A stretch of DNA of 64,000 bases from an uncultured virus (IMG/VR IMGVR_UViG_3300001682_000595) (Duplodnaviria; Heunggongvirae; Uroviricota; Caudoviricetes), in the IMG/VR virus record IMGVR_UViG_3300001682_000595; one strand, written 5' to 3'. Numbering within the stretch: position 1 is the stretch's first letter; each line of letters begins with the position of its first letter. A program made the translations under genes and the position numbers. A model generated the notes under the pieces. That model was not told where the DNA came from and made no database searches. It saw only the letters and a list, made by a program, of their open reading frames with translations. Of the stretch, positions 30,280 through 53,530 are shown piece after piece.

Positions 30280-30280
30280 G

Positions 30281-30694: not shown

Positions 30695-30773
30695 AGTTTA
30701 AAGCCTCCGTTTCAATTAAATTTGACATATTAAAAGCGCCTTGCGGTAAAGCAAAGCGCCAAAATGGGAGAGA

Positions 30774-33245: not shown

Positions 33246-33811
33246 TGCGACACCTCGCTTTCGCTCATCTCCGTGTACTCCAGATACACCCGCGCCGACT
33301 TTTTGCTTTCCACTTTTATCCGATGCTTGCTGTCATAGGCGGCGGTGTACTGAAAGAAGCCGCGCTTGGGCGTTGCGGAGCCGTTTTTCAGGCATTCTCT
33401 TGTAGAGGCTTTCAGGGCGAACTCGTCGCCCGCCGAAGCCGCCGCTGTGAATTTGCATTTGTGCGAGCCCATACCTTGCGATACCTCGATACTGCCCGCC
33501 GCCATAGGCTGTTTCGGGTAGATGTAGAGGTCAAGCCCCGCCGATGTGCTACCCGTGTTGAACAGTACGACTGTTTCGCCGCCCCTGACCACGCCGTTTT
33601 GGTAGCGTGGGGTGTTGCCGGAATGAACGAGCATCGTTTTGGTGTTCTGGACGTAGCCCGTCAGCTTTTCGCCCTCCTGAAACTGAATGTCGGTGAAGTA
33701 AATCGTACCGGTGCAGTCGGTAATGGTCGGCGTGACCGTCACGGACACCACACGCTTGTCGGCCTTTAGCTTAATCGTCTCCGCAAAGCGAATGAAATTG
33801 TTCATAACCAT
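33242..33811 (-). CDS. tail-associated hypothetical protein
   Basis: Homologous to 49172-49756. Confidence 0.8.
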   Translation of the reverse strand: MVMNNFIRFAETIKLKADKRVVSVTVTPTITDCTGTIYFTDIQFQEGEKLTGYVQNTKTMLVHSGNTPRYQNGVVRGGETVVLFNTGSTSAGLDLYIYPKQPMAAGSIEVSQGMGSHKCKFTAAASAGDEFALKASTRECLKNGSATPKRGFFQYTAAYDSKHRIKVESKKSARVYLEYTEMSESEVSQ

Positions 33812-33814
33812 AGG

Positions 33815-34009
33815 TTATCCGTCCTCCGTCCACCGGATCTCTGCGACGTTGCCAACCCAGCCCGTGGCGGTAGAACCGGCCTGAAGCATGATGTCCGTGA
33901 AGTACACCTCGCCCGTACAGTCCTGAACCACAAGCCTGACGGTGATGGACTCCAATCTGCCGTAGCCTTTGGGCGAAGCGTCACGCGCCACAATCTGAAA
34001 AGAAGCCAT
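33815..34009 (-). CDS. small tail-associated protein (half of a CBM-like fold)
   Basis: Homologous to 48977-49171; VYFTDIMLQAG.TATGW. Confidence 0.75.
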   Translation of the reverse strand: MASFQIVARDASPKGYGRLESITVRLVVQDCTGEVYFTDIMLQAGSTATGWVGNVAEIRWTEDG

Positions 34010-34021
34010 AACGCTGCCCTC

Positions 34022-36550
34022 CTAAAACAAGTCAATGAACCGCGTTTCCTTGGTTCCGTCCTCGTATTCGAATACCAGTTCAATGCCGACCTGCCCGTTT
34101 GCGCCCTTGACGAGGTTTTCCGAGCCGATCTGCGCCGAGATGGTATAACTGCGGCGCGAGGACGGGTAAACGGTTTGCGCCATGCTCTTTGTGGCTCCGG
34201 GTACGCCCACCGCTTTGAACGAAGCCGTACCCGTCACGCCGTTTTCCGTGTCTATTTCAAAGCCGCTGTTTTGCCAGTAGGCAAAGCCGTCGTCAGCCCT
34301 GCTGTTCCTCAGGTGGTTGAATGGCACCATATCCTTGAGTTCCTGACCGATGAGATTTGACTGCCCCAACTGATCGGCGAGGGCATCGTTTGAGGAATCG
34401 CCCAACTCGCGCAGCTTCGTGGAGAGTTCCAGAACGGTTTTCCATGGCTCCTGCAGGTTATACTCGCGCCTGATTACCCTCGTCTTGATAGTCAAATCCA
34501 ATTCCCTGTCGTCCACGGTCACGATGTCGCCCAAGTCCCACTGTTCATGTTCGTAGCCCGTCAGCACAGACAAGTCCATCGCCGAAAGGACGTAGGACAC
34601 CCGCGGCCTGGCGTATTCGCCGAGTCGCATATTCGTGTACTCCAGCATTTGATAGGGGTTTGTAAAGTTGGATAAATCCAAGGCGGATACCCTGACTTCT
34701 TTGGAATAGGTGAAATCCTCCACATACTCCTTGCCGCTGTTGATCGACGCAAAGGTCATGCCGTCCTTGCCGTATGCGTAAAGTCTGGTAACAAGGCTCC
34801 TGGTATCAACCACGCGCTTAATGCCCGTGAGGTTTTTTCGGTAGGTGAAGAGAGCGCCGCTGTCCCGGCCGCTGAATACGAGCAGGCTCACCAGCTTGCC
34901 CCGGCTGTCGAAGACAAGGTCGCCGCCGTGAATCTTCTGCGTCATGCGGAGGATGGCGAGGGCATTTTTCTCCTGGCATGTCCATGTCCGCAGGGTTGTG
35001 ACATCCACCGTTCCGATGCTCCAGCCCGTACCGGCGAGGGCATATGCCATCGGCTCGGCGGCGGGCGCGGAGTTGAACTCTGTCGGCTGTTTTTCCGCCG
35101 AAAAGGTCAGGTCATAGAAGGCGGCTTCCGCATAGACCGTAGTCAGGATGCCGCTGCCGTCGGAACCCTTCTCGTCCGTCAGTGTCCGTATTCGGTAGAT
35201 ATCGCCCGCAATCTGCACCTGCTTCTCATTGTCAAGTGACGGCCGCTTCGGATCGGAGTACGGCAACTTGAATTCCAAGGTGTCCGCGCCGTTGACCTCT
35301 CCCGTGACGATGATGTCGTAGGCGTTCTCCAAAACTGCCTCCCACGCGCCGTTCGCGTCGAGTATGACGGGGCTGGCAAAGCCCAGCTTCTCATACGGGG
35401 CTTTCGGGATGTCGTGGAGCGTAATGTCGAGCAGTTTCGGCGTGGCCGCGCTGTCCAAAGTATGGAGCGTGACCCGATAACGAATATACCTCCTGTTTGG
35501 GGAAGCCAGTTCGCCGTTTGAGCCGACCGACTGCCACGCAGACCAGTCCTGTAAATCGTCCGAAGTGGATGTTTCAATCAGGCCGATGGACGTAACGCCC
35601 GCCGTATATTCCGAAGTCACCGACACCCGGCCGCTTCCCGAAAGGGAGCACCCAGCCGCTATGGTGATAAGCTGGCCGCTTTCGGGGTAGGCGTTGTTGC
35701 TTGCTTTTTTAAGCGTGACCACTCCGGGTTCCGTGAGCGCGTCCACACTGGCATTCACATCGCCGCCGTTGGCCATGATCGCCTGCAGGAAGTGGTTTCG
35801 CAAATCCTCGATGGTCTGTTCCGACTTCGTTTCGATGAACCAGTCGTCGAAACCGCCTGCATAGTAATACTGGTTTGCATGCATACCGATGATGATGTCC
35901 GCGGAGCAGTTCGGGTTCAGGTCGCCCGTGAACGTCCGCACAGGCGCAATCCAAACTGCGCCACTGTTGCGGTCGCAGAGGATGTACTGGCTCGTCTTGG
36001 CGGTCACCCCGATAACCGCGGCGATGAAGTACCAGCCGCCGTTGACCATCGGGAACGACGGCGTTTCCGTTTGGTCGAGGATAAGGCTTCCCGACGAGTT
36101 GTAAAGCATCATCCTCGGTCTGCCCTGGTAAAGCGAGAGGTACAGGAGCGGCTGTCCGGGTCCCTGCCTTGTGTTGAAGAGCGGGATATAGGTTGAACCG
36201 ACGGAGTAGGTGGTCGGGTTTATCCAGCCTCCCACGGCTATCTTGTCGCCGAGTGTGGTGAAAAAACTGCCGTCGTTTACCACTTGGAGGTATGTTTTCT
36301 CCGAGGTGGGGTTGCTGATGTTCTGCCGGAAGTACCGCCCGTAGCGTCCGTTCGGAAGCGAAGCGGTCGTCCCGCTCCAACCGGAAATAAACGCATGCCG
36401 CCCGTGTCCGCTCGCGTCGGCAAGTTTGGTGTCGCTGTCCGGCGCGGATTCGTTGAACCGCCAGAGGGCGAGCGTGTTCCCGGTCACGGGAAATTCGCCC
36501 GTGAAGTCGGTTTGTGATGTTAATACTGATTTTATCGCCACTAAAGCCAC
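34022..36550 (-). CDS. phage tail spike/Tal-like protein with N-terminal LamG
   Basis: ALWRFNE LamG start; NGADTLEF, VTRLYAYG, LGDIVTV minor-structural motifs. Confidence 0.85.
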   Translation of the reverse strand: MALVAIKSVLTSQTDFTGEFPVTGNTLALWRFNESAPDSDTKLADASGHGRHAFISGWSGTTASLPNGRYGRYFRQNISNPTSEKTYLQVVNDGSFFTTLGDKIAVGGWINPTTYSVGSTYIPLFNTRQGPGQPLLYLSLYQGRPRMMLYNSSGSLILDQTETPSFPMVNGGWYFIAAVIGVTAKTSQYILCDRNSGAVWIAPVRTFTGDLNPNCSADIIIGMHANQYYYAGGFDDWFIETKSEQTIEDLRNHFLQAIMANGGDVNASVDALTEPGVVTLKKASNNAYPESGQLITIAAGCSLSGSGRVSVTSEYTAGVTSIGLIETSTSDDLQDWSAWQSVGSNGELASPNRRYIRYRVTLHTLDSAATPKLLDITLHDIPKAPYEKLGFASPVILDANGAWEAVLENAYDIIVTGEVNGADTLEFKLPYSDPKRPSLDNEKQVQIAGDIYRIRTLTDEKGSDGSGILTTVYAEAAFYDLTFSAEKQPTEFNSAPAAEPMAYALAGTGWSIGTVDVTTLRTWTCQEKNALAILRMTQKIHGGDLVFDSRGKLVSLLVFSGRDSGALFTYRKNLTGIKRVVDTRSLVTRLYAYGKDGMTFASINSGKEYVEDFTYSKEVRVSALDLSNFTNPYQMLEYTNMRLGEYARPRVSYVLSAMDLSVLTGYEHEQWDLGDIVTVDDRELDLTIKTRVIRREYNLQEPWKTVLELSTKLRELGDSSNDALADQLGQSNLIGQELKDMVPFNHLRNSRADDGFAYWQNSGFEIDTENGVTGTASFKAVGVPGATKSMAQTVYPSSRRSYTISAQIGSENLVKGANGQVGIELVFEYEDGTKETRFIDLF

Positions 36551-36631
36551 CTCCGTTAAACGTACACTTCCGAAGCGGGCGCGAAGCTCGAAATATTTTC
36601 TTTACGTGAAAAGCCGCCGGCGGCTCGCCGG

Positions 36632-37411
36632 TCACCTCCAGCGGCTTTTCGCCTGTATTTCAAGTTCCGTAAATGCGGCGCCCTCGACGGTGATTTTTAT
36701 TGTGTTAGCACCTTTGTGCAGAATGGGAAAGTTCAACTCCGAAAGCAGCGGGAGACCGTTGCGGAGCGTCTCGCCTGTGTCGTCAACTACCTTGGCGGTT
36801 ACCAGACCGCTGTCGATGACGAGGGTTTCACCGTCATTGAGCGTCCCGACTACCTTGAGCTCATCATCGTTGGTCCGGATGCTGACGTATGTTGCCCTCC
36901 CCTGCGGGATCATGCCTTTGAGCAGATACACGGGAAGCGAATCGGTGTTTCCCTTGGTTCTGGTGATTGTGTTTTCGCCCTCGGCGGTAATGGCGAAGAT
37001 CTCGTCCGTCTGCGCGTAGCCGAAGGGGTCGGGGCAGACGAACTTCAAATCAAACGAGCCGGCCGTCAGAATCAGCCGCTCGCAGTCCACGGCGTCGGAG
37101 AGCCGCGCCGTGAAATATCTGTCGGGGATGTCGTCCAGCACAAGCTGTTTCAGTCCCTTTTCGGGGTCGAGCCACTCCGCCATTCGGTCCAGAACCTCGA
37201 CGAGCGAAGACAGAGTGTGTTTCGGGTAGATGTTGCACTTGACCGTTATGACGCGCTCCGCGCTGTCGCTGCCAAAGTCCGCCACACCGGGCTTGCCGGG
37301 TATGGTGACAAAGGAGTTCCGCAAGGGCGGCGAAGCCTGCCAAGAGGTGAGCCGCGCCTTTATCCCCATGCTCCGCGATGTTATTCCATTGAAAGTAAAG
37401 CCCACGGCCAC
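36632..37411 (-). CDS. distal tail (Dit) protein
   Basis: FTFNG, IPGKPG, F.CPDPFGY; lies between tape measure and spike. Confidence 0.85.
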   Translation of the reverse strand: MAVGFTFNGITSRSMGIKARLTSWQASPPLRNSFVTIPGKPGVADFGSDSAERVITVKCNIYPKHTLSSLVEVLDRMAEWLDPEKGLKQLVLDDIPDRYFTARLSDAVDCERLILTAGSFDLKFVCPDPFGYAQTDEIFAITAEGENTITRTKGNTDSLPVYLLKGMIPQGRATYVSIRTNDDELKVVGTLNDGETLVIDSGLVTAKVVDDTGETLRNGLPLLSELNFPILHKGANTIKITVEGAAFTELEIQAKSRWR

Positions 37412-37417
37412 ACCTCC

Positions 37418-39874
37418 TTACGCCGGGCTGAACCGGCCCTGCGCCCTTGAGCCAGTCTGCATCAGGTTGTACAGTTCCTGTGAAATCCTGCGGATGTCGT
37501 CCTCGCTTCGGACAATCATCTGCTGTATCGTAATCAGCGCAAACCTGTTCGAATCCGCCGCAGTCCCGTTTGCCGCCGTATTGATATTAATACCGGGTGC
37601 TTCGAAGTTTGCCGGGATTGCGTTCTGCATATCCTCGCCGACCTGTGCCATAGCCTTTTCGAAGCCGACGCCCAAACCCTCGGCCATGTTGTCGCCAAGC
37701 CCCGCGAAGAGTGTGGACGGCGAGTGGATGCCGAAGAAGTTCTTGATTTTGTCCACCACTCCGCCGAAAAAGCCGGATATTTTGTCCCAGAGCCACGCGC
37801 CCGCGTCGGAGATGCCCTGCCACAGCCCCTTGATAAGGCTGCCGCCGACCTGCGCCATCTGCCCGATGTAGCTATTAAACGCCTTGACCAGCCCCATGAT
37901 AATCTGTGGCACTGCCTTGACCACCTCGACAATGATGGTCGGCAGGTTTTGAATCAGGGCGACAAGCAACTGAACGCCCGCAACAATAATCTTATCGACG
38001 TTCCCGACGATGGCGTTCACCAGCGAGGCCACAATTTCCGGAATGGCGGATACGACGGCCGTGATGATTTGTGGCAGGTTTTGGACTAAGGCAACAAGCA
38101 GTTTTACGCCCGCGTCGATGAGTTGCGGGATTGACCCGAGTATCGCCGTAATCAAACCCTCGATGATTTGCGGGATAGCAGCCACAATTGCCGTGATGAT
38201 TTCAGGAAGGGCTTCCACAAGCGACACCAAAAGCTGAATCCCGGCATCGATAATCTGCGGTATCGCGCCGATGATAAAGTCGACGATGCCCGTGATGATG
38301 GCGGGCAAGGCGGCTACCAGTTGAGGAAGAGCGTCCAGTAACCCTTGCGCCAAGCCGAGGATTAACTGCAGCGCCGCGTCCAAAAGCATAGGCAGGTTAT
38401 CCGTCAAGCCCTGAACGATGGTCGTTATGGCGGTGACCGCCGCCGGTATGAGTTCTGGCAGAGCCGAGCCGATGCCCATGGCAAGCGCGGAAACCAGCTG
38501 CACCGCGACGTCGAGCAGGAGCGGGAGGTTGTCAATCAAGGCCTCGACAATCGTCATAACGGCATCGACCGCCGCCGGTATTAATTCGGGCAGGAGTGTC
38601 AGAATCGTATTCAGCACCTGCGTAAACAGTTCCGTGACTGTCTCCAATAGTATAGGCAGGAGGTCTGCTACCGCCTGCAATATCGCCCCGGTTGCCGTGG
38701 GCAGAGCCGCAACGATGTTCTCCAAGACAGGCACTATGTTTTTCACGACTGCCTGAAATGCATCCACAAGGTTCTGCGTTAGGTTGGTCATGTCGGCGTT
38801 GGCGTTGCCGAGTCCCGCCGTGAAGGACGACAGGGCGGCCTGCAGCAGCCCGATTGAGCCACTGATGGTTTGCGTACTTTCCCGCGCGAAGTTGCCCGCG
38901 TACTGTTCGGTGTTCTCGAAAAACATTTGCATGGCGACCTCGGCTTTTTCCGCTTGCGTCGCCGTGTTCCAAGTGAAGTCCAGCCCCTTGGCGAGGGCGT
39001 AGGCTTCGATGTTGGTGGCGTTCATGGCGACGCCGAGATTATCCATCATCGTGAAGTTGCCCTTTGCGGCGCCGGTCACGGCATCGAGCGCCTCCTGCAT
39101 GTCGATGCCCATGACGGAAGCCATATCCGCCGCCCGCTGCATCGCCTTTTCGGTCAGTTCCAGCGACTTTTGCTGCTCGATGCCAGAACCTTGGAACAGC
39201 GCACCCATTTTATTGGCTGTCGCTAAATACTGCGACTGCGATACACCGAGGTTCTTGTAAGCTTCCTCGCCGGTCTTCTGGATGCTCGCAGCATACTCTC
39301 CGAACACAGCTTCTGAGCCGCCGAGGTTCTGCTCCAGTTCTCCGAACTGCTGCACAACCTCTTTGCCAAGTTTGATAGCCGCCGCGCCTGCCGCCACGGC
39401 GACCGCGCCCATCGCCGCGCCTATTCCTTTCAGGACACCGCCCAGCTTCTCAAACTTCGGGCCGGACTTTTCGGCTTCATCGCCCGTATCCTTTAATTCG
39501 TCGCCAAGGGCGTCGGTGGCTTCCGCGGAATTCTCCAACTCACGCTCCATGCCGTTGAGTTCGGCTTTGGCGTTATTCAGCTGGATAGCCCAGTTCTGTG
39601 TCCTGCGGTCGTTCTCGCCGAAGCTCTCGGAGGCGTTTTTGAGTGCGGCTTCGAGGGTGGAGATTTTCTCATTTTGCGCGTCGATAGCCTTGTTTAGGAC
39701 TTCCGTCCGGGCGGCGACCGCCTGAACGCTCTTATCGTTCTTGTCAAACTCGGAGGAGACCAGCTTCATCTCCGAGCCAAGTACCTTAAAGGACTGGTTA
39801 ATTTCGCGGAGGGCGTTTTTAAATTCCTTTTCGCCCTCGACGCCAATTTTCAGCCCGAAGTTGTCATATCCCAT
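37418..39874 (-). CDS. tape measure protein (element B)
   Basis: DNFGLKIGVEGEKEFK N-terminus, amphipathic repeats, FFGIHSPS. Confidence 0.9.
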   Translation of the reverse strand: MGYDNFGLKIGVEGEKEFKNALREINQSFKVLGSEMKLVSSEFDKNDKSVQAVAARTEVLNKAIDAQNEKISTLEAALKNASESFGENDRRTQNWAIQLNNAKAELNGMERELENSAEATDALGDELKDTGDEAEKSGPKFEKLGGVLKGIGAAMGAVAVAAGAAAIKLGKEVVQQFGELEQNLGGSEAVFGEYAASIQKTGEEAYKNLGVSQSQYLATANKMGALFQGSGIEQQKSLELTEKAMQRAADMASVMGIDMQEALDAVTGAAKGNFTMMDNLGVAMNATNIEAYALAKGLDFTWNTATQAEKAEVAMQMFFENTEQYAGNFARESTQTISGSIGLLQAALSSFTAGLGNANADMTNLTQNLVDAFQAVVKNIVPVLENIVAALPTATGAILQAVADLLPILLETVTELFTQVLNTILTLLPELIPAAVDAVMTIVEALIDNLPLLLDVAVQLVSALAMGIGSALPELIPAAVTAITTIVQGLTDNLPMLLDAALQLILGLAQGLLDALPQLVAALPAIITGIVDFIIGAIPQIIDAGIQLLVSLVEALPEIITAIVAAIPQIIEGLITAILGSIPQLIDAGVKLLVALVQNLPQIITAVVSAIPEIVASLVNAIVGNVDKIIVAGVQLLVALIQNLPTIIVEVVKAVPQIIMGLVKAFNSYIGQMAQVGGSLIKGLWQGISDAGAWLWDKISGFFGGVVDKIKNFFGIHSPSTLFAGLGDNMAEGLGVGFEKAMAQVGEDMQNAIPANFEAPGININTAANGTAADSNRFALITIQQMIVRSEDDIRRISQELYNLMQTGSRAQGRFSPA

Positions 39875-39875
39875 A

Positions 39876-39952
39876 AATAAAGTTATCCTCCTTTCTCCCC
39901 AGAATCATAGAAAAATCCGGGGAATTCGTAGTGAACTCCTCGGATAATTCTT
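39876..39952 (-). repeat. RIT left terminal inverted repeat (77 bp)
   Basis: Exact reverse complement of 43261-43337. Confidence 0.95.
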
Positions 39953-39982
39953 ACAGTCAAATTCCAAAAAATTACGATAGGA

Positions 39983-41242
39983 GTGAGCATTATGAACGAT
40001 AGCAACAGTAGCTATTGGAACAAACTAAAATCGGATTTCATGGAATACGTTAAGCGTGAAATCCTGAAACCACAGGGAGAATACAAACGCTATACCAGAT
40101 CTGTGGATTTACTCATAGAGTACGCTGAGGCAAATGGCTATAACGAGTATTCACCGGAAGTTGGCATGGCATTTTATGAATCAGAAAAGGCTCATGGCTA
40201 TAAAGGGTATTCAACGCTTGGGTATCGTCGAGCTGCAATCCGGCATCTTAACGAATTCCTCTATGGTAATAGTTTCTGGCAACGTAAACCTCGTAACGTC
40301 TTTCGTTACCAAACGAGCAAGGTTCCGTTGCAATGCCCCAAACAGTTTTCTGAGGTTCTCGAGCGGTTCCTGCAGACAATACACAAAGAAGGACTGAAGG
40401 ACATTACCGTCAATCAATACCGTGTTGCTTGTACCAAGATGTTGCTGGATTTTGAAGAACAAGGCGTCGCCGGTTGGGAGGACATCGATGCCAAAAATCT
40501 GACGTCGGCTTATATGCGTTCCACAAACAAGTACCATTTCGTTTCGTATTCGAGACGATTGTTTCAGTATTTGCTTGATGCTGGTGTTGTAACAACAAAC
40601 TACACCGGCATCTTGCCGTCAATGTCAAAGCACAAAGCAATACCTTCGGTTTACAGCGAATCGGAAATCAACCAGCTGCTGGAAAGCGTAGAAACTTTTA
40701 CGCCGCAAGGCAAGCGTGATTACGCAATTCTTTTAATTGCGGTCCGATTGGGGTTAAGACAGTCAGACATACGGCTTTTGCGCTTTGAAAATGTTGACTT
40801 TGAAAATGCCAGCGTAAGCCTTATCCAGTTTAAAACCTTGGTTCCTTTGGAATTATCCCTGCCTGATGAAGTTGCAAAGGCTCTACACGATTATATCGAT
40901 AACGGTCGTGAAGAGTCTGATGAGCCGTATATTTTTCTCAACGGATACGGGGGAGCATTGACACAACATGCCGTTTCGCACATAACCTCAAGGCATTTCA
41001 AAAAAGCAAAAATTAATGTCGGTGACCGTCGCCACAGCACTCATGCGCTTAGAATGACTTTTGCAAGTCAGTTGATTGCGGAAAATGTGCCCTACGAAGT
41101 GGTAAGAGTCCTTCTTGGTCACGTCAACCGGGATTCTACCCGCCACTATGTAGAGTTTTCAATTGAGGGGCTGAGATCCTGTGCGCTTGAAGTTCCTGCA
41201 CCCAGTGGTTTGTTTGCACAATATATGGCGGAGGAGGCATGA
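39983..41242 (+). CDS. ritA: tyrosine recombinase RitA
   Basis: GLRQSD, HALR, LGH, HY. Confidence 0.9.
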   Translation: MSIMNDSNSSYWNKLKSDFMEYVKREILKPQGEYKRYTRSVDLLIEYAEANGYNEYSPEVGMAFYESEKAHGYKGYSTLGYRRAAIRHLNEFLYGNSFWQRKPRNVFRYQTSKVPLQCPKQFSEVLERFLQTIHKEGLKDITVNQYRVACTKMLLDFEEQGVAGWEDIDAKNLTSAYMRSTNKYHFVSYSRRLFQYLLDAGVVTTNYTGILPSMSKHKAIPSVYSESEINQLLESVETFTPQGKRDYAILLIAVRLGLRQSDIRLLRFENVDFENASVSLIQFKTLVPLELSLPDEVAKALHDYIDNGREESDEPYIFLNGYGGALTQHAVSHITSRHFKKAKINVGDRRHSTHALRMTFASQLIAENVPYEVVRVLLGHVNRDSTRHYVEFSIEGLRSCALEVPAPSGLFAQYMAEEA

Positions 41243-41245
41243 AAA

Positions 41246-42220
41246 ATGGCAGTCATTTTTAAGAGCATCCTTTCTCAGGAAATGAATGATTATCTGGAGT
41301 TGCTTTGTTCCGCCAAGAGAGACACAGAAAGCTATGTATCCACTTTTAGAAGCCTCGATGAGTATTTGGTCAAAGCAAAAATTACCAAAAAAGCACTCTC
41401 TGAAAAGCTTCTGATGGATTGGCTCAGTACTCTTTCAATAGCGGAAACAACCAGAAATTACGAAATCGGCAGAATACGAAAATTTGCTCGTTATCTGACA
41501 GCTCTGGGCATCCCAGCGTGTGAACCTGATTTTTTCCGTGCTTCATCTACATACAAAGCTTACACATTTACCGATAAGGAATTCAGCAGAATCATTGCCG
41601 TGGCAGATAATTGTAAAGTAAGCTATACAAAGGCCGAAAGTGCCTTCGTTTTTCCGGTTCTGTTGCGTGTGCTCTACGGCTGTGGTCTGAGAGTAGGTGA
41701 AGCCCTTGCGCTTCAATGGAAAGACGTTGACCTTGACAACGGAGTCATTACAATTAAGCAAGCGAAAAACAACAAGCAGCGACGTGTACCGGTTAGCGAT
41801 TCGATGAAAAATCTTCTTGCCCAGTACCGCAAACGGAGGTTTACCGATTGTGATGACGCTGTGTATTTGTTTGTCAATAGCGAGAAAACCGGGAAACCCT
41901 ATGATGTACAAACATTCGGATATTGGTTTTCTAAAGTCCTTGAAAAAGCAGGTGTTGATAACCAGCGCAAAGAGCCTTTTGAGCGTTGTATTTCAACGCA
42001 TACCCTGCGGCATTATTTCACCTTTAAATCATTCCAGAAAGCCGTATCCGAAGGACGTACTCTTGAAGAAACAGCTCCTTATCTGTCTGCCTATCTGGGG
42101 CACGAAACATTTTTCGGAACGGAGAAATATTTAACCACAGACTATACAATGTATACCGATTCGCAGGAGAAGGTATCCAATGCAATCCAGTCCGTATTTC
42201 CGGAGGTGTCTTTTGAATGA
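41246..42220 (+). CDS. ritB: tyrosine recombinase RitB
   Basis: GLRVGE, HTLRH, LSAYLGH, KY. Confidence 0.9.
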   Translation: MAVIFKSILSQEMNDYLELLCSAKRDTESYVSTFRSLDEYLVKAKITKKALSEKLLMDWLSTLSIAETTRNYEIGRIRKFARYLTALGIPACEPDFFRASSTYKAYTFTDKEFSRIIAVADNCKVSYTKAESAFVFPVLLRVLYGCGLRVGEALALQWKDVDLDNGVITIKQAKNNKQRRVPVSDSMKNLLAQYRKRRFTDCDDAVYLFVNSEKTGKPYDVQTFGYWFSKVLEKAGVDNQRKEPFERCISTHTLRHYFTFKSFQKAVSEGRTLEETAPYLSAYLGHETFFGTEKYLTTDYTMYTDSQEKVSNAIQSVFPEVSFE

Positions 42221-43251
42221 GCAGAAAAACAAACGAAGTCACCTCGTTGTTGGAAGAGTTTTTTACCGATTACCTTCCACATGTAAGGGGATTAAGCGAA
42301 AATTCCATTACTTCATACCAATATGCCTTTCGGCTTCTCTTTCATTATTTATGGAACGTGAAAGGATTGCCGCCCGAGAAGGTAACTTTTGAATCGTTAT
42401 CCGGCGATACCATTGAAGATTTTCTGCTACACCTCGAGGAAGACCGTGGATGTTCTGTAAAAACGAGGAACCTGAGACGTGCTTCGATTGTTACGTTTGC
42501 CAAGTTTGCTGCGAAAAGGTCGTTTACGGCATCCATGTCTTTTCACTCCGGCATTTCACGGGTTCCCAAAAAGAAGGAACCCAAAAAGCTTGGCTTCAAG
42601 CACTTTTCAAAGGAAGAAATCACGATTCTTCTAAATTCGCCGGATATATCCAGGTTGATTGGGCAGCGCGATTTAACCCTTATGAGCTTGCTGTATGCTT
42701 CAGGTGCGCGTGCACAGGAGCTTTGCGATATCACCCTGGCAGACATTACATTGGGGACTCCTACGAAAATCCGATTGACGGGTAAAGGAAGCAAAACCCG
42801 TGTTGTAACCATTCCTGACAGCTGCACTGCCATACTGAAAGAATACCTGAAGAGCAGAAATCTCGACCTTGCCTCAAGGGAAACAAAGGGGCGGCACTTA
42901 TTCTCCAGCCAGACCCACGAACACATGTCAATTGCGTGTGTTGAGGGAATTGTCAAGAAATATGTCACAGAGGCGAAAGCACAGCATCCGAATCTTTTCA
43001 AAGAAGACAGCTATTCTCCTCATTCGTTTAGGCATTCTATTGCAGTCCATATGCTTGAAGCCGGTGACTCTCTTGTTGCAATTAAGGCCTTCCTGGGGCA
43101 CTCTTCTCTTGCGACCACATGCATATACGCAACCGTGACCCCTGAACTGGCGAACAAATACCTGGACGAGCGTGGAAAAGCATTGCCGGATGTCTCCACA
43201 CAGACCACTCCACAGCCGTTGCCACAGGCTTTACCGTTCTTGTATCGATAA
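42217..43251 (+). CDS. ritC: tyrosine recombinase RitC
   Basis: GARAQE, GKGSK, HSFRH, LGH, IY. Confidence 0.9.
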   Translation: MSRKTNEVTSLLEEFFTDYLPHVRGLSENSITSYQYAFRLLFHYLWNVKGLPPEKVTFESLSGDTIEDFLLHLEEDRGCSVKTRNLRRASIVTFAKFAAKRSFTASMSFHSGISRVPKKKEPKKLGFKHFSKEEITILLNSPDISRLIGQRDLTLMSLLYASGARAQELCDITLADITLGTPTKIRLTGKGSKTRVVTIPDSCTAILKEYLKSRNLDLASRETKGRHLFSSQTHEHMSIACVEGIVKKYVTEAKAQHPNLFKEDSYSPHSFRHSIAVHMLEAGDSLVAIKAFLGHSSLATTCIYATVTPELANKYLDERGKALPDVSTQTTPQPLPQALPFLYR

Positions 43252-43260
43252 ACACATATG

Positions 43261-43337
43261 AAGAATTATCCGAGGAGTTCACTACGAATTCCCCGGATTT
43301 TTCTATGATTCTGGGGAGAAAGGAGGATAACTTTATT
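43261..43337 (+). repeat. RIT right terminal inverted repeat (77 bp)
   Basis: Exact reverse complement of 39876-39952; contains AAGGAGG near its outer end. Confidence 0.95.
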
Positions 43338-45594
43338 GATCGGCATTGAAGGAGAGCGCGAGTTTAAAAACGCCATCCGGGAGATCAATCAAAGCTTCAA
43401 AGTGCTGGGCAGCGAGATGAACCTTGTTGCATCCCAGTTCGATAAGCAGGATAAGTCCGTTGAAGCCGTTGCTGCACGAAACAGGGTGCTAAGCAAGGAA
43501 ATGGACGCTCAGAAAGAAAAAATCTCAACCTTGGAGAAAGCGCTTGCCAACGCCGCCTCCTCTTTCGGGGAAACCGACAGGCGCACCCAGTCATGGCAGA
43601 TACAGCTCAACAACGCCAAAGCGGAACTAATCAAGATGGAGCGCGAGCTGGAGGCAAACAACAAAGCGCTGGATGCTGCAGAAAAAGAGTTTAACGAAGC
43701 GGAAAAACAGGCGGACGAATTCGGCGGCGAGATCAAAAAAGCTGCGGATCAGGCGGACGACGCGGGAGGCCGCTTTGAAAAACTGGGCGGAGTTTTGAAA
43801 GGGATCGGCGTGGCCATGGGCGCGGCTATGGCCGCCATCGGCACGGCGGCAGTAGGCGCGGGCAAGGCTCTTGTGGATATGTCGGTAAATTCGGCGGCCT
43901 ATGCCGATGAAATTCTAACCGCTTCAACCGTAACCGGCATGTCCACCGACAGCCTGCAGGCGTACAAGTACGCGGCGGAGCTTGTGGATGTGTCCTTGGA
44001 CACTTTAACCGGCAGCATGGCAAGGAACGTCAGATCCATGTCTTCAGCAAGAAAAGGCACCGGCGAGGTCGCAGACGCTTACCGGCAGCTCGGAGTTTCG
44101 GTCACTGACGCCAACGGCAATCTGCGCAACAGCGAAACCGTCTACTGGGAAACCATAGACGCCCTCGGCAAGGTGTCCAACGAAACCGAGCGCGACGCGC
44201 TGGCCATGCAAATTTTCGGCAAATCCGCGCAGGAACTCAATCCCCTTATATCGCAAGGTTCTGCAGGCATTGCGGAACTGACCGAGGAAGCAAAGCGCAT
44301 GGGCGCGGTGATGAGCGAGGATACACTGAACGCCCTCGGAAAATTTGACGACAGCATCCAACGGCTCAAGGCGGGCGGCGAGGCGGCAAAGAACATGCTG
44401 GGCACCGTGCTGCTTCCCCAGCTTCAGATATTGGCCGACGACGGAGTTACACTTCTTGGCGATTTTACGCGGGGACTGTCCGAGGCCAACGGCGACTGGA
44501 CAAAGATAAGCGAGGTCATTGGCAATACGGTGGGAAGCCTTGTGGATATGCTGATGGAAAACCTGCCGAAGCTCATTCAGGTGGGCCTGGATATCGTCAC
44601 CTCCATCGGCGGGGCAATAGTGGATAATCTTCCCGTTATTATCGATGCGGCGGTTCAGATCGTCATGACGCTGCTGCAGGCGTTGATTGACGCTCTGCCG
44701 CAGATAACAGAAGGCGCTTTGCAGCTTGTAATTGCGCTGGTGCAGGGGATCATTGACAACCTTCCCGCTTTGGTGGAAGCCGCGGTGCAAATGATTGCGA
44801 CGCTGGCGTCTGGCATCGGCGAGGCGCTTCCGGAACTGATTCCGGCTGTTGTCGAAGCCATTCTCCTCATTGCCGAGGTGCTTATTGGTAATATGGATAA
44901 AATCCTCGACGCGGCGTTTCAGATCATACAGGGATTGGCGCAGGGTCTTTTAAACGCCCTGCCAAAGCTTATCGAGGCGCTTCCGCGAATTATCGCGTCA
45001 ATCATTGATTTCGTGACAAGCAACCTTCCGAAAATCGCAGAACTTGGAATTGTGCTCATCGTCCAGTTAGCCGTGGGCCTGATCAAAGCCATCCCTGAGC
45101 TGGTCAAGGCACTCCCGCAGATTGTTGCGGCCATCCTTGAAGGCTTAGGCAAGGCGGCCTCTTCGGTGGTCGAGATCGGCAGGAACATTGTCAGGGGCAT
45201 CTGGGAAGGCATCAAGAGCCTCGGAAGCTGGCTGTGGGACAAGGTCAGCNNNNNNNNNNNNNNNNNNNNNNNNNNNNNNNNNNNNNNNNNNNNNNNNNNN
45301 NNNNNNNNNNAAGGCATCGGCGGCAATATGGCGATAGGGTTAGGCGAGGGCTTTAACAAGGCCATGGCAAGAGTGGCGGACGACATGCAAAATGCGGTAC
45401 CGACGGACTTTAATATATCGCCTGACATTAGCGCAAGCGGACGCGGCGGATCCGCCGCTTCAGCTTCCGGCCCGCTGGTCGTGGTGCAGCAGATGATCGT
45501 GCGCAGCGAGGATGACATCCGCAGGATCTCGCAGGAACTGTACAACCTGATGCAGACCGGATCAAGGGCGCAGGGCCGCTTCAGCACGGCGTAA
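43336..45594 (+). CDS. tape measure protein (element C), first codons replaced by the RIT end
   Basis: IGIEGEREFKNAIREINQSF matches TMP-B; shared C-terminus QQMIVRSEDDIRRISQELY; N gap at 45250-45310. Confidence 0.85.
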   Translation: MIGIEGEREFKNAIREINQSFKVLGSEMNLVASQFDKQDKSVEAVAARNRVLSKEMDAQKEKISTLEKALANAASSFGETDRRTQSWQIQLNNAKAELIKMERELEANNKALDAAEKEFNEAEKQADEFGGEIKKAADQADDAGGRFEKLGGVLKGIGVAMGAAMAAIGTAAVGAGKALVDMSVNSAAYADEILTASTVTGMSTDSLQAYKYAAELVDVSLDTLTGSMARNVRSMSSARKGTGEVADAYRQLGVSVTDANGNLRNSETVYWETIDALGKVSNETERDALAMQIFGKSAQELNPLISQGSAGIAELTEEAKRMGAVMSEDTLNALGKFDDSIQRLKAGGEAAKNMLGTVLLPQLQILADDGVTLLGDFTRGLSEANGDWTKISEVIGNTVGSLVDMLMENLPKLIQVGLDIVTSIGGAIVDNLPVIIDAAVQIVMTLLQALIDALPQITEGALQLVIALVQGIIDNLPALVEAAVQMIATLASGIGEALPELIPAVVEAILLIAEVLIGNMDKILDAAFQIIQGLAQGLLNALPKLIEALPRIIASIIDFVTSNLPKIAELGIVLIVQLAVGLIKAIPELVKALPQIVAAILEGLGKAASSVVEIGRNIVRGIWEGIKSLGSWLWDKVSXXXXXXXXXXXXXXXXXXXXXGIGGNMAIGLGEGFNKAMARVADDMQNAVPTDFNISPDISASGRGGSAASASGPLVVVQQMIVRSEDDIRRISQELYNLMQTGSRAQGRFSTA

Positions 45595-45606
45595 AGGAGT
45601 GGTCAT

Positions 45607-46380
45607 ATGGGATTTATCTACAACGGAATTTCGTCGCAAAGCATGAAAATCCGGGCAAGGCTTGCTGGATGGCAGGTGTTCCCTGCCCTGCGCAACTCCT
45701 TTGAAACCGTGCCGGGAAAAGCGGGCGTGGCCGATTTCGGGTGCGGCATCTCTGAGCGAACCATCACAATAAGCTGCGGCGTGCTTCCACAGCGCAGCTT
45801 TGCCGAGCTGGTATCGGTTCTGGATAACGCGGCGGAATGGCTGAATCCGGCAAACGGGCTTAAGCAGCTTATCCTCGACGACGTGCCCGACCGCTATTTC
45901 ATGGCGCGGCTATCGGAAGCGGTGGATTGCGAGCGGCTGCTGCGGTCGGCGGGCGCATTCGACCTACACTTTATCTGCCCCGACCCGTTTGCCTATGCGA
46001 TTGAGGATGAGGTGTTTGTTCTTTCCGGAACGGGAACGCATGCGGCGGAGAGGCTTGCGGGAAACGCCGATTCCGAGCCGGTGTATCTCTTGAAGGGTGT
46101 GATCTCCGCATCCTCTTCAAGCTATATTTCGCTCATTACAAATGGAGAGGAATTGCGGATTGTCGGCCCGCTGGCGGCGAATGAAACTCTTGTCATTGAT
46201 TCCGGCATGGTGACCGCAAAGGTGACGGATGCTGCCGGAAACACCCTGCGCAACGGCCTGCCGTGTCTGCAGGAGCTGAACTTTCCGATCCTCAGGAAGG
46301 GCGTGAACAATATAGGGATCAGCGCCGTAAACGCGACATTCACGGAACTGAAAATACAGGCGAAAAGCAGATGGAGGTGA
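45607..46380 (+). CDS. distal tail (Dit) protein
   Basis: Homologous to 36632-37411. Confidence 0.85.
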   Translation: MGFIYNGISSQSMKIRARLAGWQVFPALRNSFETVPGKAGVADFGCGISERTITISCGVLPQRSFAELVSVLDNAAEWLNPANGLKQLILDDVPDRYFMARLSEAVDCERLLRSAGAFDLHFICPDPFAYAIEDEVFVLSGTGTHAAERLAGNADSEPVYLLKGVISASSSSYISLITNGEELRIVGPLAANETLVIDSGMVTAKVTDAAGNTLRNGLPCLQELNFPILRKGVNNIGISAVNATFTELKIQAKSRWR

Positions 46381-46467
46381 CCGGCGGGCCGCCGGCGGCA
46401 ATTCGCGCCCCAATTTTTATACATAATCCGACTAATGCGCCGCACCTAAAGTGCGCGCTGAACGGAG

Positions 46468-48965
46468 GTGGCTTTAGTGGCGATAAAATCAGTTTTAACA
46501 TCACAAACCGACTTTACTGGGGAATTTCCGGTGACGGAACAAACGTCCGCGCTTTGGCGCTTCAACGAAAGCGCGCCGGACGGCAATCTGCGGCTTTTGG
46601 ATTCGTCCGGGCACGGCAGGCATTTTACCGTCTCCGGCTGGTCGGGCACTTCGGCGAGCCTGATTGCCGGAAGATTCGGGCGATACTTCCGTCAAAACAT
46701 CGTCAACCCGACTTCTGAAAAGACCCACCTTATAGCTGCCAACGACGGGAGCTTTTTCAGTAATCTGGGCGAAAAGATCGTTGTGGGCGGTTGGATCAAC
46801 CCCACCACTTATTCGGTGGGGCAGACATACTGCCCTATCTTCAACACCAGGCAGGGACCCGGCCAGCCTATTTTCTATGTGTCCCTCTATCAGGGCAGGC
46901 CGCGCATGATGCTGTACAACTCGGCAGGTTCATTAATCCTTGACCAGAGCGAAACGCCAAGCTTCTCCATGGTCAACGGCGGCTGGTACTTCATCGCGGC
47001 CGTCATTGAGGTGACGGCCAAGACCTCGCAGTTTATCCTCTGCGACCGGGGAATACCGGCACGCTCAATCCGTCCTGTACGGCGAATATCGTCATGGGCA
47101 TGCATGCCGACACCTATTATTTCGCGGGCGGCTTCGACGACTGGTTTCTGGAGACCGATTCGCGCCTGACCATCGACGACCTGGCGCAGCATTTTAGGAA
47201 CGCGCTGCTGGCCAACGGTGGTGATGCAAGCGCAGATGTGGACGCCCTGACGGAGCCGGGCGCGGTTATGCTGAAAGCGGCAAACGGCGTATACCCTGCC
47301 AGCGGTGTGCTGTATACAAAAGCAGCGCCCTGCGCGTTGTCCGGCAGCGGGCGTGTGGCGGTGACCAGCGAATACACGGCGGGCATAACGTCAGTTTCAC
47401 TGATAGAAACCAGCACGAGCGACGACCTTGCGGAATGGTCGGCATGGCAGGCGGTGGGGACGAGCGGCGAGCTTCAGTCCCCAAACCGGCAATATATCCG
47501 GTTCCGGGTGACGCTGTCCACCGCCGACACGTCAAAAACGCCGAAACTGCTGGAAATCCAGCTTCACGATATCCCCAAGCCGCCCTATGAAAAGCTCGGT
47601 TTTGCCCGGCCGGTGGTGCTGGATGGAAACGGGGCATGGGAAGCCGTCCTTGAAAACGCCTTTGATGTCATCGTCACCGGCGAAGTCAACGGCGCGGACA
47701 TGCTGGAGTTCAAGCTTCCGTTCCATGACCCGAAAAGAAGCGCGCTGGAAAACGAAAAGCAGGTGCAGATCGCGAGCGACATCTACCGAATCCGCACTCT
47801 GACCGACAACAAAAGCGAGGACGGGCGCGTTATAACGCAGGTTTACGCCGAGGCGGCGTTTTACGACCTGTCTTTCAGCGCGGAAAAGGATCCTGCGGAC
47901 TTTAACGCCGACGCCGCCGACGTGCCGATGAAATACGCATTGCTTGGCACCGGATGGTCGGTGGGAAACGTTACCGTAACAGCAAAACGGACATGGCGGT
48001 GCACCGAGAAAAACGCGCTGTCCATTCTTCGTACTGTGCAGAACATCTACGGCGGCGACCTTGTTTTTGACAGCGCCAACCGGCTGGTGCATCTTTTTGC
48101 ATTCAGCGGCACCGACAGCGGGGCGCTGTTTTCGTATAGAAAGAACTTGAAAAGCATCCAGCGGGTGGTCGACACACGGGAACTGGTAACAAGGCTTTAT
48201 GCCTACGGGAAGGATGGCATGACCTTCGCCTCCATCAACGGCGGCAAGGAATATGTGGAGGATTACAGCTTCTCCAGCGAAGTGAGGGTATCTACGCTTG
48301 ACTGTTCGTCATTTGGCAATCCGTATCAGATGCTGGAATATGCCCGGATGCGGCTTGCGGAATATTCGAAGCCCCGCGTTTCCTATGTGCTGTCGGCCAT
48401 GGACTTGTCGGCGCTGACCGGCTATGAGCATGAAGCGTGGAAACTGGGCGATATCGTGACTGTGGACGATAATGAACTGGGACTTTCCATCAAGACCCGC
48501 GTCGTGCGGCGGCAGTACAACCTGCAGGAGCCTTGGAAAACGGTGATTGAGCTTTCCACGAAACTAAGGGAATTAGGCGATTCTTCGGCGCAGTGGGACA
48601 AGGCGGCGGACGCGCTGTCTTCAACCGATCTCCTCGACCGTCAGGAGATCAAGGATATGGTGCCGTTCAACCACCTGCGCAATTCCCGGGCGGACGACGG
48701 CTTTGCTTACTGGGTCAATTCCGGTTTTGAGGTGGACACAGAAAACGGCGTTTCGGGAACTGCTTCTTTTAAAGCGGAGGGCGTTTTAGGCATGACAAAG
48801 AGCCTGTCTCAGACGGTATATCCGGCAACGCGCAAAAGCTACACCTTTTCTGCGCAGATCGCTTCCGAAAAACTCCAAAAGGGCGAAAACGGCCAGGTAG
48901 GAGTCGAGATAGTAATTGAATACGAGGACGGCACAACGGAAACAAGATTTATAGACCTGATTTGA
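46468..48965 (+). pseudogene. tail spike/Tal-like protein with LamG, frameshifted near 47053
   Basis: ORFs 46468-47169 and 47094-48965 together match 34022-36550; about 34 nt missing after CDR. Confidence 0.85.
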
Positions 48966-48976
48966 GGGTGGTGGAT

Positions 48977-49171
48977 ATGGCATATTTCAATCAGATTGTA
49001 CACAGTTTTTCTCCGAAAAGTATCAGCAGAGTCAAGTCTATCACCATCAGACTGTGCGTCACTGACTGTAGCGGCACAGTGTATTTTACAGACATATTAT
49101 TGCAGGGCGGCTCGGTGGCCACCGGCTGGGTCGGTCATGTATGCGAGATACAGTGGACATTGGACGGGTAG
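48977..49171 (+). CDS. small tail-associated protein
   Basis: Homologous to 33815-34009. Confidence 0.75.
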   Translation: MAYFNQIVHSFSPKSISRVKSITIRLCVTDCSGTVYFTDILLQGGSVATGWVGHVCEIQWTLDG

Positions 49172-49756
49172 GTGTTGATGATGCAGTTTTCAAGGTTTGC
49201 GGAAACCATACAGATAAAAAGCGACAAGCATGTGGCGGGCGTGACTGTGACTTTGCTGCTTTCCGACTGCACCGGCACAATATATTTTACCGACCTGCAG
49301 CTTCAGGAAAACGACCGGCTGACGGGTTACACCGTCCACACCGGCAAAATGCTAACGAAGATGCAGGAAAACGGGCAGCCAGTTCCTCCTAGGCATTATA
49401 ACGGCGTGGTGCGGACAACGGAAACGGTTATTTTATTCAACCTGGGCAAAACATCCGCCGGCCTCGACTGTTATATCTATCCTGTGCAGGACATGGCGGC
49501 AGGCAGTATTGGGCTTTCCCAGGGCTTGGGCGCGCACAAAGTGAGGTTTCTTGACCCGGTAAACGCATGCGATGAGCTGGCGCTCAAGGTTTCCACCCGC
49601 CAATGCCTTAAAAACGGAAGTCCCACTCGTAAGGATGGGTTTTATCAATATTCTGCGGCATGGGACAGCAAACATACAGTGAAGCTGGAAGAGAGAAAAT
49701 CGGCGCGGGTGCTCTTTGAATTTCAGGAGATGCAGGAAGGCGGTGACCGGTTATGA
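49172..49756 (+). CDS. tail-associated hypothetical protein
   Basis: Homologous to 33242-33811. Confidence 0.8.
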   Translation: MLMMQFSRFAETIQIKSDKHVAGVTVTLLLSDCTGTIYFTDLQLQENDRLTGYTVHTGKMLTKMQENGQPVPPRHYNGVVRTTETVILFNLGKTSAGLDCYIYPVQDMAAGSIGLSQGLGAHKVRFLDPVNACDELALKVSTRQCLKNGSPTRKDGFYQYSAAWDSKHTVKLEERKSARVLFEFQEMQEGGDRL

Positions 49757-52221: not shown

Positions 52222-52308
52222 GGCGGCGGTATTTATATATTCGGCGCTTTGCTTTCAGGCAGGGCGCTTTTTAATATGCAAAATTTGATTGAAACGGAGG
52301 TTTTATCA

Positions 52309-52725
52309 ATGAAAACGGTATGGAACTGGTTGCAGGCGGCCTTTGCCGCCGTCGGCGGTTTCCTCGGCTGGTTTCTCGGCGGGGCGGACGGGTTTCTCTA
52401 TGCTCTCATTGCCTTTGTGGCCATTGACTATCTGACCGGCGTGATGTGTGCGATTGCGGACAGGAAGCTGTCCAGCGAAGTCGGGGCCAAGGGCATCTTC
52501 AAGAAGGTGCTCATTTTTGTGCTGGTGGGCGTGGGGCACATCATTGACAGCCAGGTGCTTGGCGACGGCGGCGCGATCCGGACGGCGGTCATTTTCTTTT
52601 ATTTGAGCAATGAGGGTATTTCCATTCTGGAAAACGCTGCGCACATAGGGCTGCCAATTCCTGAGAAGTTAAAGAACGTACTGGAGCAGTTGCACAACCG
52701 CTCAGATGAGGAGGAAGAAAAATGA
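52309..52725 (+). CDS. phage holin
   Basis: Close homolog of 30281-30694. Confidence 0.92.
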   Translation: MKTVWNWLQAAFAAVGGFLGWFLGGADGFLYALIAFVAIDYLTGVMCAIADRKLSSEVGAKGIFKKVLIFVLVGVGHIIDSQVLGDGGAIRTAVIFFYLSNEGISILENAAHIGLPIPEKLKNVLEQLHNRSDEEEEK

Positions 52726-53447: not shown

Positions 53448-53530
53448 GGTGCGGGCAATTGATACAATATCATGACAGCGGGGGCGGCGGTTTGGCCGCT
53501 CCCGCTTTAATAATCGGGGAGGTGTTTGTT

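Follow-up and report, generated by a model that had tools for sequence, protein, structure and literature searches.

A recombinase trio between two tape-measure genes

We analysed a 64,000-nucleotide (nt) stretch of DNA from an uncultured Caudoviricetes virus (IMG/VR IMGVR_UViG_3300001682_000595), referred to as the window. A mobile element at 39858–43337, belonging to the recombinase-in-trio (RIT) elements known since 2009, was found between two divergent phage genes for tape-measure proteins (TMPs), designated TMP-B and TMP-C. The element is a RIT by architecture, an assignment drawn from its three-gene layout, integrase domains, visible catalytic residues and the match of ritA to an annotated trio. 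All three genes lie on the plus strand and encode tyrosine recombinases. ritA (39983–41242) encodes 419 amino acids (aa) from a GTG at 39983 (PF00589, 7.8e-30); an alternative start, ATG at 39992, would give 416 aa and is where the alignment with the relative L006, described below, begins. ritB (41246–42220; 324 aa; PF00589, 7.5e-23) starts 3 nt past the ritA stop, and ritC (42217–43251; 344 aa; PF00589, 2.2e-27, plus a SAM-like N-terminal domain) overlaps ritB by 4 nt. Each product matched the Pfam Phage_integrase profile PF00589 above cut-off; against Pfam and NCBIfam, neither of which holds a RitA-, RitB- or RitC-specific profile, the trio's matches fell below the Xer cut-offs. The catalytic R, HxxR, GH and Y were recognized by eye in all three translations (RLGLR, HALR, LLGH and RHY in RitA; GLRVGE, HTLRH, YLGH and EKY in RitB; GARAQE, HSFRH, FLGH and CIY in RitC). 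ritA displayed 30.6 % identity over 88 % to the first gene of the annotated integrase trio of Cupriavidus necator pHG1, and the sizes of the two trios match (419/324/344 versus 420/327/336 aa), ritA being the only member compared by sequence. No fourth recombinase-adjacent gene was found between the repeats, where the only non-overlapping plus-strand open reading frames (ORFs) of at least 60 aa were the three recombinases. A consensus scan for outward promoters inside the element returned 6 promoter-like sites against 5.6 expected, none convincingly placed.

Both ends of the element read outward AAGGAGGATAACTTTATT. The left terminal inverted repeat (39858–39952, minus strand) comprises a hairpin block, an AGGAGG ribosome-binding site (RBS; 39892–39887), a 12-nt spacer, ATG GGA TAT (39874–39866) and a core, GAC AAC TT (39865–39858). 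Its hairpin (39921–39939, minus) is terminator-like, precedes the RBS in the outward direction and is followed by CCGGATTTTT; the stem has seven pairs in the consensus scan and is longer in an RNA fold. The right repeat (43250–43337, plus strand) contains the corresponding hairpin (43274–43292) and AGGAGG (43321–43326), but is truncated at its outer end. A TTG (43336–43338, plus) lies 9 nt past this AGGAGG in the TMP-C frame, its TT belonging to the repeat and its G to TMP-C codon 10. A repeat finder returned arms of 83 nt at 39870–39952 and 43261–43343 that were 98 % complementary, whilst the canonical repeat is 106 nt long, made up of 89 nt before the ATG, ATGGGATATGA and six further core nucleotides; counted to the centre of the palindrome described below, it reaches 114 nt. 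The unit measures 3,463 nt in the window, and canonical copies align over 3,495 nt. The original prediction of a RIT with outward-facing RBS ends was therefore borne out feature by feature, including the left ATG of TMP-B 12 nt past AGGAGG on the minus strand and the right TTG, which opens a 752-aa ORF. Its 77-bp inverted repeats agree with the identical part (39875–39952 and 43260–43337), but this is really the overlap of two 106-nt repeats that have been truncated differently.

TMP-B (37418–39874, minus; 818 aa; phrog_58, 6e-91) begins with three codons, ATG GGA TAT, that are element DNA, phage DNA starting at 39865. TMP-C (43336–45594, plus; 752 aa; phrog_10613, 1.5e-47) is the tape-measure gene of a second phage, and the two proteins are 36 % identical overall. 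A simple insertion into one TMP gene does not describe the window, where the element has the TMP body of a different phage on each side.

Related copies and mini-elements

A RitA scan of viral contigs identified six loci (L001–L006). Five of these (L001–L005) carried the element at 98.9–99.9 % DNA identity on contigs that each end at or in it, and L006 is a diverged relative (RitA 58 % identical in aa, 67 % in nt). A genome scan gave four loci, one in an 866-kb contig (L088, on contig C4 of genome G001) and three on contigs consisting of the element only. A metagenome scan by repeat-end pattern returned 15 stretches on 10 contigs (L098–L109), including a further diverged lineage, L099 (RitA 65 % identical in aa). 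Another diverged lineage at the TMP site, L187, was found by palindrome pattern in viral contigs. Copies at about 99 % identity (L001–L005, L088, L098, L101, L102/103 and L108) displayed eight distinct upstream and six distinct canonical downstream flanks, and occupy at least eight phage backgrounds. The element in cultured phage genomes and plasmids was sought by megablast without a match, and a protein search in phages returned only matches of at most 36 % identity on unannotated faecal contigs. Twenty public sequencing runs from 12 studies contained at least 56 % of the sampled words of window positions 38900–44300, 64 % of which are the element. These runs were mostly anaerobic-digester and sludge metagenomes, and one is possibly the window's own source. 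Within public runs X1–X4 the element interior assembled as one 3,378-nt piece with at most two differences, and the repeat as a separate 106-nt piece.

Three mini-elements without recombinases (L100:5011-5290, L106:4730-5035 and L109:5011-5296) occupied the same TMP site as full elements, on contigs of 32, 11 and 78 kb, respectively. Each has both repeats, with 265–274 nt between two outward ATGs, and by sequence they look like RIT derivatives of the miniature inverted-repeat transposable element (MITE) type.

The three element-only contigs (L087, L089 and L090; 2.6–3.4 kb) were found in metagenome-assembled genomes (MAGs) labelled Chitinophagaceae, Proteiniphilum and Lachnospiraceae. This binning is almost certainly an artefact of a repeat contig.

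Insertion at the start of tape-measure genes

Every other copy found was inserted at identical nucleotides of a TMP gene, giving 14 distinct upstream and 11 distinct downstream junctions. At upstream junctions (L001 = L108, L002–L006, L098, L100, L101, L102, L106, L107, L109 and L187), the native RBS, start codon and one or two codons (GCN, GGC, CCT, TCA or GCT GGT) run into GAY NNY TT. Beyond this core come ATC, a near-palindromic spacer of 10 nt and GAT, after which core and repeat recur in inverted form, leaving a stub ORF of 7–9 codons that ends in a stop codon within the palindrome. Behind these junctions, genes for major tail (phrog_88) and chaperone (phrog_2115) point towards the element. 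Downstream junctions (window left, L088 left and right, L006, L098, L099, L100, L102/103, L106, L108 and L109) consist of ATG GGA TAT GA, then target-specific codons, then TTY GGN YTN AAR ATH GGN. All 11 canonical junctions encode MGY(D/E)(N/D/T)FG(L/F)(K/R)IG in the TMP frame. Where the contig permits, the rebuilt TMP ORFs are 729, 764, 818, 896 and 900 aa long, and shorter ones stop at a contig end or a later frameshift (379 aa at L088 right, 449–467 aa at L100). Ten loci have both sides on one contig. Seven of these (L006/L104, L098, L102/103, L108 and the mini-elements L100, L106 and L109) read, on one strand, major tail, chaperone, element, TMP; the other three (window, L088 and L099) have a TMP body on each side.

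Uninserted sites were surveyed by aligning six flanking chaperones and taking the best 80 of 551 viral loci. In 72 of these 80 the TMP gene starts (A/G/T)TG GCN (or TCT, ACG) GAY AAY/AGY/GAY/ACC TTY GGN, encoding MADNFGLKIG, and none of the 72 starts with MGY. At the other eight the contig stops before the TMP start or carries other genes there, and the repeat was present in none. The flank of L005 aligned to three loci of the same phage without the element (L007–L009) at 98.2–98.7 % over 2.9–3.6 kb, diverging at the core, with the alignment stopping inside GTG SCT GAY AAY TT. An empty site was also recovered for TMP-B: contigs in runs X2 and X4 match the window as far as 39865, beyond which their letters differ and read, in reverse complement, AAAGGAGGGCGTGTCCCT ATG TCA, the native RBS and start. 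When TMP-B was compared with TMPs of cultured or curated phages (tblastn), homology began at residue 4–6 in 19 of the 20 records listed; in the remaining one, H23, the match began at residue 1, where the DNA reads ATG GCA GAC AGC. It follows from the native-site and empty-site comparisons that MGY and its RBS are element DNA, and D-N-F onward phage DNA.

The 8-bp core GAYNNYTT is common to the repeat and to codons 3–5 (D-N-F) of native TMP genes. Because repeat and native gene differ 5′ of it, and palindrome and TMP body differ 3′ of it, the crossover can be placed inside these 8 bp. Such a short core would suit a tyrosine recombinase with an overlap region of 6–8 bp. Across 11 aligned ends from five autonomous lineages and the three mini-elements, GGAG(G)ATAAC, a spacer of fixed length and ATGGGATATGA are invariant or nearly so; the sequence between the Shine–Dalgarno (SD) block and ATGGGATATGA varies, but its length is kept.

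Chance as the origin of the RBS and start pattern was ruled out by its conservation across lineages. The proposal that the RIT targets the 5′ end of TMP genes is upheld by all of these junctions falling at one exact spot; the flanks of the other copies were checked for random positions and frames and none was random, with in-frame TMP starts throughout the canonical junctions. The idea that the repeat supplies an RBS holds for both ends but understates the contribution, which also includes ATG and two codons (GGA TAT), the ATG of TMP-B itself being element DNA. Targeting of the TMP start and rebuilding of its reading frame thus appear well supported by the sequence comparisons.

Lesions of the window copy

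The copy in the window carries two deletions. A 32-nt deletion at 39952/39953 takes the inner 13 nt of the left repeat; the longer form is present in L088, L001, L098 and L102 as well as in all four runs X1–X4, where 39952 is followed by 11 letters that the window does not have. In the right repeat, the outer 18 nt were lost with a 27-nt deletion at 43337/43338. The sequence missing here is T ATG GGA TAT GAY NNY TTY GGN CTG AA, and ...CTTTATT now joins G ATC GGC. The undeleted 5′ end of TMP-C, with C GAT TTT GGC CTG AA before 43338, occurs as loose ends in runs X1 and X3. This second deletion is in frame, changes TTT to TTG and removes the repeat's own ATG plus eight codons, such that TMP-C has lost its first nine codons relative to the canonical hybrid. 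The earlier observation that TMP-C lacks first codons present in TMP-B is confirmed. The TTG, which had been taken for a start codon given by the repeat, is instead a product of the 27-nt in-frame deletion and not a designed start. As its core has been deleted, the right end of the window copy is unable to recombine at the normal site. We suggest that this copy would have been immobilized after its insertion by loss of the right core, creating the TTG by accident, and by the 32-nt deletion in the left repeat.

Proposed integration mechanism

Taken together, the junctions make it likely that the element is an autonomous RIT which inserts site-specifically in the first codons of TMP genes in siphophages of anaerobic, Clostridia-type hosts, and that the window copy is a secondary product. 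In the mechanism that we propose, recombination would take place inside the GAYNNYTT core. Joining of the element's ends would create a long palindrome that contains two cores, in the order repeat, core, ATC-N10-GAT, inverted core, inverted repeat. Either core could recombine with a TMP start, so that insertion might occur in either orientation with one and the same outcome: the palindrome centre would stay at the upstream junction, and one repeat plus core would be fused to the TMP body. Since the two repeats are identical, the rebuilt start is the same in either orientation. This start would keep the TMP translatable and the phage still able to carry the element.

Several observations weigh against this model or weaken its basis. 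No circular or hairpin intermediate, nor any joined-end piece, was seen in the contigs of runs X1–X4. One phage upstream flank was found on opposite ends of the element in two assemblies (L001:3700-3760 and L108:3632-3700); this would reflect either inversion of the element between its repeats or a failure of short-read assembly to orient the interior. The interior orientation in short-read contigs is not trustworthy. Lastly, the metagenome scan required ATGGGATATGA, and L006, L187 and the second end of each mini-element are the only ones unbiased in this respect.

Predicted translation of the tape-measure gene from the repeat

In the original prediction the repeat rescues TMP translation and so renders insertion silent; we treat both as putative. 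Several features speak against them. All five autonomous lineages have a strong hairpin with a T-run behind it, some 30 nt before the RBS; it folds at −12.5 to −21.3 kcal/mol, its T-run is weaker in L006 and L099, and a terminator consensus scan flagged it in the window at 43274–43292 and 39939–39921. It could stop transcripts before they reach the TMP gene, and in a read-through transcript the complementary 106-nt repeats could bury the RBS. The spacing from SD to ATG is 12 nt in the repeat versus 8–9 nt in native starts. The conserved block extends past the SD as GGAG(G)ATAAC, and GGATAA/TTATCC also occurs at an inner block and beside the palindrome centre, so the motif may be a candidate recombinase-binding site. 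ATGGGATATGA displayed no synonymous change in any lineage, consistent with constraint on a DNA site rather than on coded residues. In the window itself the TTG start may have no function, as the right arm is decaying.

The hairpin, the 12-nt spacing, the extended conserved block and the lack of synonymous change in ATGGGATATGA also favour an alternative in which targeting would be real but insertion not silent, with the resemblance to an RBS and ATG a by-product of arms that mimic the target for recombinase binding, and with the insertion polar or inactivating. Open TMP frames would then reflect recent insertion only, and the 99 %-identical copies do indicate recent spread, for which TMP decay is not yet expected. 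The only two large genomic contexts, the window and G001, are furthermore headless, partly broken phage remnants. We nonetheless consider this alternative unlikely. The mini-elements speak against it. Their diverged repeats mark them as old residents, yet the TMP-side repeat has kept AGGAGG or GGAGG, the spacing and ATG in three of three, and one of them precedes a full 764-aa TMP ORF on a 77.6-kb contig. In the same three repeats the hairpin has been lost (−2.8 to −5.2 kcal/mol), so the hairpin has decayed where SD and ATG have not; in the distal repeat the hairpin is kept in two of three and the SD degraded in one of three. This pattern, albeit from three cases, is what selection for TMP translation would leave. 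The in-frame design has also been kept in lineages in which RitA is only 58–65 % identical, again at odds with a mere by-product.

The two-armed arrangement

In the window, two phage arms of about 13 kb diverge from the element. The left arm (25382–39874, minus) carries genes for TMP, Dit, Tal, a GH18 protein, a holin-like ORF, an amidase and two large serine recombinases, and the right arm (43336–56429, plus) repeats this gene order; both read away from the element and share about 74 % identity in patches at the DNA level. Decay has set in on the right arm, with a frame change in Tal (frame 3 to 2 at 47055–47082) and a damaged stretch at 55402–56429 in which an 80-aa N-terminal piece of the second serine recombinase (56184–56429) and a degenerate fragment are left. 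In the window, neither TMP has a head, major tail or chaperone gene beside it.

The second such layout is in genome G001 (2.2 Mb), which contains a single RIT copy. Its 866-kb contig C4 carries two serine recombinases, lysin, tail genes and TMP on each side, reading away from the RIT. Relative to the window its arms are a mosaic: Tal and GH18 protein are 89–90 % identical in aa, TMPs 46–65 %, and one tail module is unrelated. The outer flanks have only an ADP-ribosylglycohydrolase/DUF6508 gene in common (74 % aa identity, in a different orientation) and by themselves decide neither descent nor independence. Considering the mosaic arms together with the differing outer flanks, independent origin of the two layouts is likelier than one inherited fossil. 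One element-adjacent TMP of G001 is split into ORFs of 379 and 522 aa (L088:10357-12943), that arm decaying too.

Searches of G001 for chaperone (by alignment) and major-tail protein gave no match, although the MAG may be incomplete, and a phage DNA polymerase query gave a weak match (26 % identity). Because of that possible incompleteness, loss of the head modules of G001 is not established.

Such tails-element-tails layouts would most likely have arisen through recombination between a second phage's TMP site and the outward repeat and core left at an upstream junction, with a RIT-less head-to-head scar or a deleted circle as the expected by-product. It is possible, though somewhat short of probable in our view, that the upstream half-site of the element in this way fuses or inverts two prophages, parting heads from tails and disarming both, and that mini-elements serve as a permanent RBS and start for the TMP. 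The scar searches count against this proposal. RIT-less palindromic scars in G001 gave four pattern matches, with two mismatches each, versus two in the control, none of them TMP-like. The pattern AATTTATC-N10-GATAAATT gave at least 118 matches in viral contigs, of which 80 were examined and three survived filtering, all of them RIT junctions (L130 = L002, L152 = L003 and the new L187); this pattern is unspecific and the search was not exhaustive.

The order TMP-B, RIT, TMP-C might also be an assembly chimera of two RIT-bearing phages joined through their shared 3.5-kb repeat. Short-read contigs do break at or fold back on the repeat: L001–L005 end there, the 3.97-kb contig of L099, with one and the same TMP flank at either side, looks like a graph artefact, the element-only contigs were binned into unrelated MAGs, and interior and repeat came apart in runs X1–X4. 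As short-read assemblies mishandle the repeat in these ways, and in the conflicting orientations of L001 and L108, a chimera is possible for the window, but we judge it improbable. The two-armed layout recurs in G001, on an 866-kb contig of a genome that has only one RIT copy; the right junction of the window, shaped by a deletion, is unique and must be present in reads; and extension of the contig more than 20 kb past both sides would imply only two outer edges at the repeat node. No contig bridging the whole element was present among those listed for runs X1–X4. Coverage depth was absent at 38900–39804 in run X3 and at 43425–44300 in run X4, and is uninformative on whether the flanks occur apart.

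That the trio is no parasite but a domesticated phage switch, its invertases alternating two tail modules behind one head module, would account for two complete alternative tail modules diverging from the element in the window and in G001, but is scarcely credible given that no head, major tail or chaperone genes lie beside the window arms or were found with the queries used in G001 (perhaps an incomplete MAG), that seven of the ten two-sided loci are plain single-phage insertions, that the 99 %-identical element occurs in at least eight phage backgrounds and that the window copy, its right core deleted, cannot switch.

Surroundings of the element

Within TMP-B a 96-nt direct repeat (38366–38593; 132-nt spacing, 72 % identical) was noted, of a type common in tape-measure genes. 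On the left-arm strand, window positions 1788–9097 (minus) contain a phage replication module with helicase-primase, family A DNA polymerase and exonuclease, and the left phage genome may continue past the serine recombinases instead of ending there. Between this module and the left arm lies a defence-type island (10882–22558, plus) with an ABC-3C CTD11 protein, a DUF2326/AAA protein, an N6/N4 methylase plus ResIII helicase resembling type III restriction–modification, GmrSD, and an ADP-ribosylglycohydrolase fused to DUF6508; the 74 %-identical homologue of the last lies beside one G001 arm (L229:18420-19799). Past the right arm, at 57414–63786 (minus), are three large genes belonging to PHROG families of unknown function (phrog_12629, phrog_2801 with an SbcC-like stretch, and phrog_11902 of 1007 aa), which may form another defence-type cassette.

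Cargo (moron) blocks were observed between the tail chaperone and the native RBS of the TMP gene at several loci: ArsR, a C_GCAxxG_C_C protein and a methyltransferase in L006:8160-10400, a GNAT acetyltransferase in L100:5330-8300 and a 396-aa unknown protein in L106:3250-4700. The curated phage genome PV036423.1 (L230:1400-2400) carries a toxin–antitoxin pair between the same two features. The chaperone–TMP intergenic spot seems to be a cargo hot spot independent of the RIT.

Implications

These results provide the first nucleotide-level RIT target in the accessible literature, together with a natural system for testing RIT movement that comprises 99 %-identical copies, empty sites, an 8-bp core, a palindromic junction and non-autonomous derivatives. 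The palindromic junction predicts the form of the RIT intermediate. The system represents an unusual parasitism of one mobile element by another, in which an essential late phage gene is entered and left open in either orientation. If the two-armed products are real, the element reshapes and may disable prophages, with bearing on phage domestication by digester and gut lysogens. Should prophage fusion by the upstream half-site prove true, lysogens with two disarmed prophages would survive induction, and the 8-bp crossover core and two-core palindromic joined-end site would constitute the first nucleotide-level model of RIT movement. For annotation, TMP genes starting MGYDNFG mark insertion of the RIT family described here, and element-only contigs get binned into unrelated MAGs.

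Comparison with known systems

In the accessible text of PMC3414803, PMC5737581 and PMC10214605, RIT mobility 'remains to be experimentally demonstrated' and its mechanism is unknown, ends of 28–51 bp are given and hairpin intermediates are considered possible, the hairpin model for RITs being raised in PMC5737581. The portion of PMC3414803 (Van Houdt et al. 2012) available to us names pHG1 as RIT-rich, and insertion sites in it are named at gene level only (a Tn6049-like transposase gene and radC). The element described here resembles those RITs in that its ritA, ritB and ritC genes adjoin and overlap slightly, it spans some 3.5 kb in all, its ends are inverted or palindromic repeats, and identical copies of it recur at several locations. 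It differs from RITs as described in these accessible texts in that its ends are 106 nt long (114 nt to the palindrome centre), its target is defined to 8 bp with both occupied and empty sites, its repeats carry a replacement gene start, its host is a phage late operon and mini-elements without recombinases exist.

Our literature search returned no paper on a RIT inserted at a tape-measure gene. The nearest system, a different one, is gp50 of Tyrovirus (PMC9703825, accessible portion). These large Bacillus phages encode a single tyrosine recombinase immediately before the TMP gene, and its stop codon is followed by inverted repeats of 11 bp. Common to both are a tyrosine recombinase between neck or tail genes and TMP and a small palindromic site by the TMP start. 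In contrast to our trio, gp50 is one core phage gene, which its authors read as the phage's own integrase with attP, and that portion of the paper describes neither a three-gene insertion with terminal repeats nor a rebuilt TMP start.

Elements of the Tn554, SE and GInt type likewise have several tyrosine recombinases as a unit and insert site-specifically, and a circular joined-end form with a short spacer between the ends has been proposed for them, as we propose here. Unlike the element in the window, they have a fourth small gene (TnpC, GinD or Srap), and the accessible accounts of them mention neither long inverted repeats nor a target gene whose start is rebuilt. Regeneration of the end of a target gene is itself a known strategy, used by phages and islands in the 3′ ends of tRNA genes and by SXT/R391 in the 5′ end of prfC. 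As in those integrators, a short segment of identity is used here and one junction is an element-derived gene end fused in frame. The present case departs from them in replacing a 5′ end (RBS, start and two codons) from both of its inverted-repeat ends, in targeting an essential phage structural gene and in encoding three recombinases versus one. The new aspects are therefore that a RIT regenerates its target, that the regenerated part is a 5′ end present in each of the two repeats, and that the target is an essential gene of a phage.

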